From positions 58,280,001-58,344,000 of the forward strand of contig OZ024745.1 of assembly GCA_964016885.1 (NCBI GenBank): a stretch of 64,000 bases of DNA. Direction: 5' to 3'. Shown one piece after another: positions 53,387-55,390 of the stretch. Position numbers and translations under genes: made by a program. The stretch is from Eledone cirrhosa. Its lineage: Eukaryota. The notes beneath the pieces are model-generated. The model searched no databases, was not told the origin of the DNA, and worked only from the letters and a program-made list of their open reading frames with translations. Every line of letters begins with the position of its first letter. The stretch's first letter is position 1.

Positions 53387-53684
53387 ACTAGTCGTTTCGA
53401 AGCAAATTCTTCCTTTTCCATATTATATATACATATATATATATATATATTTAGAAACACACAGATACATGCGGACACACACATATATACATGAATGCAT
53501 CCGCACCCAACTGTGAGTTAAGGGTGCCAACTTCACCGATGTTGCTCAATGAATGACTGGGACAGACCAATTCAGTTCGAACTAGACTGAACCAGTATCA
53601 GAGTTAAAAATACATTATGAAGAGAGAAGAAACATTTAGATATAATTAGTAATAAAATGTATCATACCTAAACTGTTCCTAAAT

Positions 53685-53772
53685 TCCTCGACTACGTAGT
53701 TTCGTGGCATAAACAAAAACAATATATCAAAGATATAGAGTCCTTGCGAGGTCTGCCGACTTATCAAGAGGA
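53685..53772 (-). ncRNA. Hammerhead with variant core TTGATAA and extended stem II
   Basis: Reverse complement of 54600-54687. Confidence 0.75.
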
Positions 53773-54599
53773 TACCTCATTTTACTAGTCTCAAGAACGC
53801 GTCTACACGACGTGAGAAAGAATCCCAAAAGGCAGAGGGGGAGATAGTCACGCGATATAACGGTCGAGAAACAGAGCTAAGCCTCTTATAACCACGAAGA
53901 AAATACCACGGAGGCGGAGGGGGTATTCATATCGAGGCCGCAGAAGAGGTAGTGAAGAAGGCGAGAAGTCTGAGTAATGGAAGCTTTCCAGTTGTCCCCA
54001 CACTTCAAAGATTGCTCGACCTGAGGGAGTTATTAATATATTTAGAAACACACAGATACATGCGGACACACACATATATACATGAATGCATCCGCAATTT
54101 AGGAACAGTTTAGGTATGATACATTTTATTACTAATTATATCTAAATATTTCTTCTCTCTTCATAATGTATTTTTAACTCTGATACTGGTTCAGTCTAGT
54201 TCGAACTGAATTGGTCTGTCCCAGTCATTCATTGAGCAACATCGGTGAAGTTGGCACCCTTAACTCACAGTTGGGTGCGGATGCATTCATGTATATATGT
54301 GTGTGTCCGCATGTATCTGTGTGTTTCTAAATATATTAATAACTCCCTCAGGTCGAGCAATCTTTGAAGTGTGGGGACAACTGGAAAGCTTCCATTACTC
54401 AGACTTCTCGCCTTCTTCACTACCTCTTCTGCGGCCTCGATATGAATACCCCCTCCGCCTCCGTGGTATTTTCTTCGTGGTTATAAGAGGCTTAGCTCTG
54501 TTTCTCGACCGTTATATCGCGTGACTATCTCCCCCTCTGCCTTTTGGGATTCTTTCTCACGTCGTGTAGACGCGTTCTTGAGACTAGTAAAATGAGGTA

Positions 54600-54687
54600 T
54601 CCTCTTGATAAGTCGGCAGACCTCGCAAGGACTCTATATCTTTGATATATTGTTTTTGTTTATGCCACGAAACTACGTAGTCGAGGA
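54600..54687 (+). ncRNA. Hammerhead with variant core TTGATAA and extended stem II
   Basis: TCCTC-TTGATAA-GTcGGCA..(about 44 nt)..TGCCAC-GAAA-CTACGTAG-TC-GAGGA. Confidence 0.78.
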
Positions 54688-55190
54688 ATTTAGGAACAGT
54701 TTAGGTATGATACATTTTATTACTAATTATATCTAAATGTTTCTTCTCTCTTCATAATGTATTTTTAACTCTGATACTGGTTCAGTCTAGTTCGAACTGA
54801 ATTGGTCTGTCCCAGTCATTCATTGAGCAACATCGGTGAAGTTGGCACCCTTAACTCACAGTTGGGTGCGGATGCATTCATGTATATATGTGTGTGTCCG
54901 CATGTATCTGTGTGTTTCTAAATATATTAATAACTCCCTCAGGTCGAGCAATCTTTGAAGTGTGGGGACAACTGGAAAGCTTCCATTACTCAGACTTCTC
55001 TCCTTCTTCACTACCTCTTCTGCGGCCTCGATATGAATACCCCCTCCGCCTCCGTGGTATTTTCTTCGTGGTTATAAGAGGCTTAGCTCTGTTTCTCGAC
55101 CGTTATATCGCGTGACTATCTCCCCCTCCGCCTTTTGGGATTCTTTCTCACGTCGTGTAGACGCGTTCTTGAGACTAGTAAAATGAGGTA

Positions 55191-55278
55191 TCCTCTTGAT
55201 AAGTCGGCAGACCTCGCAAGGACTCTATATCTTTGATATATTGTTTTTGTTTATGCCACGAAACTACGTAGTCGAGGA
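55191..55278 (+). ncRNA. Hammerhead with variant core TTGATAA (second tandem copy)
   Basis: Same as 54600-54687, offset +591. Confidence 0.78.
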
Positions 55279-55344
55279 ATTTAGGAACAGTTTAGGTATG
55301 ATACATTTTATTACTAATTATATCTAAATGTTTCTTCTCTCTTC

Positions 55345-55390
<46 letters not shown>

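Follow-up and report, generated by a model that had tools for sequence, protein, structure and literature searches.

Structure of the locus

The window (the whole stretch of Eledone cirrhosa DNA analysed, 64 kb) contains a 591-bp hammerhead unit in two arms that stand head-to-head inside a (TA)n tract (Table 1; locus mapped as L069). Phases are numbered from the first base after the predicted cut (phase 1 = 54683). The first-pass annotation had described a 591-bp ribozyme monomer present both in tandem and as its inverted mirror, about 1.1 units on the minus strand being joined to about 2.1 units on the plus strand, and this description was borne out: the period is exactly 591, the hammerhead motif is present, and the measured lengths are 1.10 and 2.12 units. 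The copies are almost identical, as had been stated (mismatches against the reference unit 54683–55273: plus arm 3, minus arm 2), and the four arm ends all lie at different phases (185, 245, 5 and 76), none precisely at the cut site; the plus-arm 5' end lies only 4 nt inside it. One cut site is passed by the minus arm and two by the plus arm. TA microhomology extends the limit of the minus arm to 53440 and, if counted, moves the plus-arm 3' end from phase 76 to 80.

Table 1: Features of the 591-bp insertion (positions in the window).
Feature	Position	Strand	Remarks
Minus arm	53445..54096	-	652 nt, 1.10 units; phase 185 (5') to 245 (3', site B)
Plus arm	54096..55349	+	1254 nt, 2.12 units; phase 5 (5') to 76 (3', site A)
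Head-to-head (5'-to-5') junction	54096..54097	.	1 nt overlap, at 54096
Full 591-nt unit, cut site to cut site	54683..55273	+	predicted circular RNA
Site A end	55344..55353	+	CATAAT then (TA)n; putative cDNA start, right-hand arm
Site B end	53440..53452	-	AAATATAT then (TA)n; putative cDNA start, left-hand arm
Interval between sites A and B	54763..54927	+	165 nt; counterpart of the PLE "tail"; two predicted hairpins
(TA)n target tract, left part	53421..53444	.	
(TA)n target tract, right part	55350..55387	.	
Type I hammerhead motif (sequence)	54600..54687	+	U3-A8 core, long stem II, palindromic stem III; predicted cut after 54682
Second hammerhead copy	55191..55278	+	period 591; predicted cut after 55273
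Minus-arm hammerhead copy	53685..53772	-	predicted cut between 53690 and 53689

No further copy of the unit was found elsewhere in the window, and no ORF of at least 100 aa was found within 53445–55349, the sole overlapping frame (55302–55763) leaving the element into the TA tract. The element holds no reverse transcriptase (RT) or GIY-YIG ORF and is not an autonomous Penelope-like element (PLE). Predicted fold of the 591-nt unit: −172 kcal/mol, far more stable than shuffled sequences (z −5.15). A frame of 24 codons at 54662–54736 (+), its ATG 21 nt 5' of the cut site, is possibly a relic of a PLE ORF start; the ORF of the anole PLE is described as beginning 26 nt before the ribozyme cut (PMC11167929).

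Hammerhead motif: the layout is TCCTC-TTGATAA-stem II-GAAA-CTACGTAG-TC^GAGGA, with stem I formed by TCCTC/GAGGA and a GTC cut; its U3-A8 core is a described PLE hammerhead variant (PMC4209133). An Rfam scan of the window gave no hit at the gathering score, hammerhead included. The core TTGATAA was kept in 269 of 272 motif copies from the fetched loci, a count in which the search pattern itself requires near-identity at both ends and some loci overlap. Across 14 chosen variants the stems were paired in 97.4% of cells and the core was nearly invariant; variation in stem II was mostly pair-keeping, two pairs being changed on both sides (the rows are related and the covariation is modest). Self-cleavage activity is what we infer from this pattern; among predicted Xenopus elements, eight of nine gave no cleavage in vitro (bioRxiv 10.64898/2026.07.22.740005).

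Neighbouring repeats: the left flank (53290–53410, −) comes from a different repeat family (2,233 candidates), of which it is a stub truncated at the 5' end, with the look of a half-hammerhead, GAAA-palindrome-GTA; several copies of that family stand in inverted pairs, and the stub probably represents a further PLE-type end lying in this TA tract. Further type I hammerhead motifs, which belong to other repeat families, lie at 50804–50866 (+), with a TA tract about 40 nt past its end, and from 4454 (−); both were seen in other loci too. A LINE-type reverse transcriptase fragment (31912–33378, +; PF00078, zf-RVT) is unrelated to the 591-bp element. The intervals 1509–2929, 34446–34950, 36546–40092 and 41031–43492 are taken up by three identical copies of a 467-bp repeat, by a 125-bp repeat, and by 11-mer and AAC arrays of great length.

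Family size and sampling

Across the 3.0 Gb genome, 8,149 exact matches to the ribozyme 3' core were counted, related subfamilies included (reversed control, 7). Exact junctions with TA numbered 1,876 for site A and 1,023 for site B genome-wide (controls, 0), the site-B pattern not catching end variants at 246–247. From these counts the insertions in the whole genome may be put at about 2,000–3,000. The 119 regions mapped comprised 39 best hits, 40 found via A-TA, 20 via B-TA and 20 via the ribozyme motif alone; the A-TA and B-TA sets were collected along C1. The copies are dispersed and, to judge by the sequence divergence between loci (1.5%), the family is young and recently mobile. A sister family, about 74% identical, retains both sites A and B, with some 10 clear A+B loci. 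Two loci (L077 and L109) carry whole two-arm insertions that are tandemly duplicated with their flanks, at spacings of 2,554 and 2,648 bp.

Fixed 3' ends and their pairing

The 3' ends lay at phase 76–81 (site A) or 245–250 (site B) in 159 of 165 arms from the first 99 regions, a tally in which 60 of the 99 regions had been anchored on one such end by design and two duplicated loci were counted twice. The other six comprised four nearby ends (56, 64, 227 and 239), an alignment artefact (364) and one off-site end (406). Two-arm insertions joined one A end to one B end in 66 of the 68 resolved cases (24, 26, 8 and 8 from the best-hit, A-TA, B-TA and motif-only sets, respectively); A+A and B+B pairs were both at 0, two cases were off-site (L112 and L225), and L231 is unresolved. 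This tally was made by hand from listings, and the 66 takes in two three-piece loci and one with a later insert. Sites chosen independently at even odds would give such pairing about once in 10^20. The head-to-head A+B architecture is thus present at 65 loci besides that in the window; none of the contigs and joints listed for four sequencing runs spans the 54096/54097 junction itself, and one raw-read run contained no sequence from the stretch. The mapped insertions have (TA)n or microsatellite targets. Microhomology alone was rejected as the cause of the 3' ends because the other TA-rich phases of the unit (197–205 and 546–560) received none of the 165.

The same genome holds an autonomous PLE-type family, which has a 3.0-kb unit with a 760-aa ORF and a hammerhead of its own. 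Its ends lie at +48–59 or +161–167 from the cut, one of each kind in five of five two-arm loci; the shared one-of-each pairing indicates that the 591-bp insertions follow the PLE pattern of an inverted pLTR with tail. The first-pass annotation overlooked this Penelope-like signature. It had called the ends permuted and had named fixed ends in other copies as evidence against its reading; its description holds for the two 5' ends, which are scattered in other copies as well, and fails for the two 3' ends, which are family-wide fixed sites and so in part the very pattern it had named. On sequence features the element is classed as a non-LTR retrozyme, and its mode of insertion is that of an endonuclease-positive PLE.

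Elements of the 3.0-kb PLE type form clustered head-to-tail arrays (L134–L136, L142–L147 and L156; C4, about 204.1–204.6 Mb); their open frames are long, and their 3' ends are fixed at two points separated by about 110 nt. The L134 ORF had no PDB match, and its 99 homologues bore no informative name. Similarity to the 591-bp unit was absent from 30 loci of one PLE family (L130–L159) and, apart from an ordinary family copy in L185, from 30 GIY-YIG loci (L160–L189); among 20 hammerhead-anchored loci (L220–L239), no arm ran into a PLE ORF. This search for a partner or pLTR homologue reached a small share of the 10,596 GIY-YIG candidates. A PLE-like ORF with a long asparagine-rich insert was seen at L097:4117–6108 (−); asparagine-rich ORF inserts are described for rotifer Penelope elements (PMC3846280).

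5' ends and junctions

The 5' ends are scattered over the unit (chi-square test: 157 ends, p 0.08; 96 ends of the walk sets, p 0.44) and show no significant pile-up near the cut site (9 of 157; 5.0 expected, p 0.10); arm length ranges from 0.04 to about 7 units. Such scatter is ordinary 5' truncation and is compatible with linear templates too. Head-to-head junctions overlap by 1.57 nt on average, as against 0.67 nt for blunt random joins (42 junctions); inserted bases were present at 15 of 57, and the rest had 0–6 nt of microhomology.

Correlated stop points of paired arms were not established: 5'-phase offsets between −165 and −201 formed a cluster that gave p 0.055 in a scan test, and the value of 0.003 for a band picked after seeing the data was not relied on. 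Near-equal 5' phases of paired arms were not enriched (9 of 54; 6.5 expected), and the lengths of paired arms were uncorrelated. Several B arms end after 67–70 nt (phase 176–179), just beyond a long hairpin, and 5' ends seem bunched at palindromes near 341 and 465 (without a multiple-comparison test).

Nature of the template

Units of one locus differ by 0.24%, as against 1.5% between loci (68 loci, a set that leaves out L077, L109 and arms below 92% identity), and divergence across arms equals that within arms (0.23% each, 51 loci). Opposite arms match at 755 of 758 polymorphic-column comparisons, where about 137 mismatches would be expected if they came from different loci; this upholds the earlier proposal of two cDNAs, each longer than one unit, made on the same template from both sides of a break in the TA tract. 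At sites covered by at least two units, 377 variant calls divide into 211 in all units, 156 in one unit and 10 in a subset. One locus, L095, has five private variants, each in all of its 7–8 units across both arms. The locus in the window carries 112G, 259A and 311G in 3/3 units, 57A and 319T in one, and 447T in 2/3; position 447 lies in a CpG, and few single-unit changes are more frequent than T>C. Variants common to both arms in some units only are three: two in L042, in register, and 447T.

The all-unit changes differ in kind from the single-unit ones. With "rare" meaning present in three loci or fewer, A>G makes up 18 of 55 rare all-unit variants (33%) and 5 of 148 rare single-unit variants (3%; p 7e-8); at loci with at least three units the figures are 11/22 and 1/61, and the contrast persists at four units. 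Among the deeply covered loci, 23 of 33 have no rare all-unit variant and are uninformative for this test. Distinct all-unit changes on the ribozyme strand number 30 for A>G and 14 for T>C (p 7e-5), and the bias is therefore tied to that strand. The A>G sites mapped in the unit include phases 107–118. These all-unit A>G variants are likely changes made on the RNA, by ADAR; as an RNA-level change found in every unit, they would indicate repeated copying of one monomer. The A>G pattern might also stem from polymerase error or from selection that favours G-U pairs. Common A>G variants are not polarised, older copies carrying G. ADAR has neighbour preferences, which underlie the context test. The signal was weak: a 3' G reached p 0.01 over 16 sites, a 5' G fell short of significance, and pairing gave p 0.10. 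A four-gamete test for recurrent editing gave incompatible pairs in 41 of 91 A>G cases and in 37 of 136 others, an excess that is suggestive only.

Single-unit changes on the ribozyme strand (L031–L129) were T>C in 33 and A>G in 7 cases (p 0.005); the T>C excess possibly reflects RT errors, G being placed opposite U.

The arms cross the cut site 247 times, and seven of these crossings have a substitution or deletion within 5 nt (insertions not scored); since the crossings are mostly clean, the template appears to have been continuous there. One monomer, taken with continuity at the cut site, points to a circular template. A circular 591-nt RNA, as the first-pass annotation had proposed, is still the best reading; its support, which is indirect, now comes from the A>G pattern, from the near-identity of units within a locus and from read-through at the cut site, and the original argument from four permuted ends falls away. 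Two contigs of 621 nt (X1) and 620 nt (X7), each one unit plus an assembly overlap, were rejected as evidence of circles because a collapsed DNA tandem would look no different and other repeats of the host reach similar depth in these runs.

Alternative templates

An uncleaved linear multimer, transcribed from a young and homogeneous tandem source and primed by a PLE at the same two sites, circles being rare or absent, would account equally well for read-through of the cut site, and unprocessed RNA is reported as the dominant substrate of the anole PLE in vitro (PMC11167929). The in-register cross-arm variants of L042, 447T in two of the three units in the window and the start of the plus arm there, 4 nt from the cut site, also suit it. 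Such a template should transmit unit-specific variants, yet partial calls amount to only 10 of 377, and many distinct haplotypes are each fixed in all units; A>G changes made on the RNA would be expected in single units and are found in all of them; the 5' ends do not pile up significantly at the cut site; and copying of this kind could only shorten arrays. This reading is considered rather unlikely.

Homogeneity and all-unit A>G would be explained as well as by a circle if the RT jumped repeatedly from the 5' end to the 3' end of the same cleaved linear monomer, in effect a non-covalent circle, and template switching is indeed visible as inserts at head-to-head junctions (15/57). Against such jumping stand 240 of 247 crossings free of substitution or deletion near the cut site (insertions not scored), the lack of enrichment of 5' ends there, and the fact that the jumps seem never to reach another haplotype; it is held to be very improbable. 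Quite as improbable, if not more so, is a DNA-level origin, in which single-unit insertions were expanded or homogenised by unequal crossover, gene conversion or DNA rolling circle, or in which the arrays are an assembly artefact. Tandem satellites do homogenise, and the process is proposed for retrozyme arrays (bioRxiv 10.64898/2026.07.22.740005), but the haplotype is as uniform across inverted arms as among tandem units, partial variant states are rare, and a strand-specific A>G excess is not expected of DNA processes; polishing would tend to remove locus-private variants rather than make them, and this architecture is found at 66 loci as well as in two further families.

Proposed course of insertion

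The non-coding 591-bp hammerhead repeat is best read as a non-LTR retrozyme. Its mobilisation by PLE machinery is very probable, and there is nearly as strong reason to think that both DNA ends are primed at two fixed sites of one template; that this template is a covalent monomer circle, and with it the full model of a PLE-mobilised retrozyme copied from one circular monomer, appears likely on the sequence patterns given above. A locus with at least two hammerheads would be transcribed, and the RNA would cleave itself and ligate to a 591-nt circle, as shown in other animals. The (TA)n tract, seen as the target, would be cut on both strands by a PLE endonuclease. Both DNA ends would then prime on one template, the first at site A (+76 to +80) and the second at site B (+245), in the manner of a PLE dimer; the fixed ends and the one-of-each pairing are the observed counterpart. 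Each RT would pass the ligated cut site, continue for 0.04 to about 7 units and stop at scattered points, and the two cDNA ends would be joined by 0–6 nt of microhomology or a short insert; failure of one cDNA would leave a single-arm copy. Changes already in the RNA, likely A-to-I edits, would be copied into all units of both arms. A bolder version, given an even chance, has a PLE RT dimer holding both break ends on one circular RNA, obligatorily with one subunit per start site, and rolling, so that A-to-I edits enter every unit.

If this is true, the genome preserves, like a fossil record, the rolling-circle copying of an edited circular RNA into DNA, and the PLE tail is accounted for along with the regeneration of PLE tandems. 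The family being young, numerous and short, template and priming processes can be read from genomic copies, and the 591-nt unit, its start sites being mapped, would lend itself as a substrate to direct testing in vitro. The element class is already known; the one-A-one-B rule and the RNA-type all-unit changes bear on the open mechanism with unusual directness. A search of the freely accessible literature found no published analysis of this kind.

Comparison with known systems

LTR retrozymes of plants, with a type III hammerhead in LTRs, were ruled out by the type I topology and the tandem units. In L1 twin priming a second-strand primer on the same RNA yields a head-to-head inversion with a microhomology joint; the second site is variable, and the two cDNAs span adjacent parts of the RNA. 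The 591-bp family differs in that neither site varies, and its arms are longer than one unit and cover common sequence.

Non-LTR retrozymes of animals, as presented in the accessible text of Cervera and de la Pena 2020 (PMC7229834) and Li, Clavereau and Pollet 2026 (bioRxiv 10.64898/2026.07.22.740005), are alike in their non-coding tandem units, each with a type I hammerhead, in a GC content below 50%, in thousands of dispersed copies and in the presence of PLEs in the same genome; the unit range of the latter paper (51–972 bp) takes in 591 bp. That accessible text gives circles or PLE ancestry and does not report fixed 3' ends, head-to-head arms or a genomic test of the template; here the circle is only predicted, and no pLTR homologue was found in the searched loci. 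A circular retrozyme RNA as template for more-than-unit cDNA has been proposed since 2014 (PMC4209133, PMC7229834, PMC7761336). The U3-A8 hammerheads of Schistosoma PLEs (Cervera 2014, PMC4209133) are described with the same core covariation and with a palindromic stem III suited to dimeric folding; the motif here differs in its stem III, which is a full 3 bp, and in its stem II, which is long and conserved.

Endonuclease-positive PLEs with inverted pLTR and tail (Arkhipova 2013, PMC3846280; Craig 2021, PMC8557442; Schostak 2008, PMC2377424) likewise insert into (TA)n, carry a hammerhead near the 3' end, have a tail at one end only, and occur as partial tandems and as head-to-head inverted copies truncated at the 5' end. 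Their tail is given as 30–40 nt, as against 165 nt in the 591-bp family, which has no ORF. The tail is placed qualitatively "often at one end" (PMC3846280, PMC8557442), whereas the pairs counted here are 66 A+B and none like-ended; the origin of the tandem, inverted and tail structures is called unresolved (PMC8557442, PMC2377424).

The nearest biochemical counterpart is the anole Poseidon PAc in vitro (Frangieh 2024, PMC11167929): two internal RT start sites flank the tail, both strands of AT-rich DNA are cut and extended, and a dimer is predicted. The RNA used was uncleaved and linear, and ribozyme cleavage was not needed. The RT start region lies about 85–92 nt 3' of the ribozyme cut in PAc and 76–80 nt in the 591-bp family. 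The PAc start sites are described as not homologous to the target and as equal between strands, whereas in the 591-bp family both start sites show TA microhomology and, in vivo, each arm uses a different one of the two.
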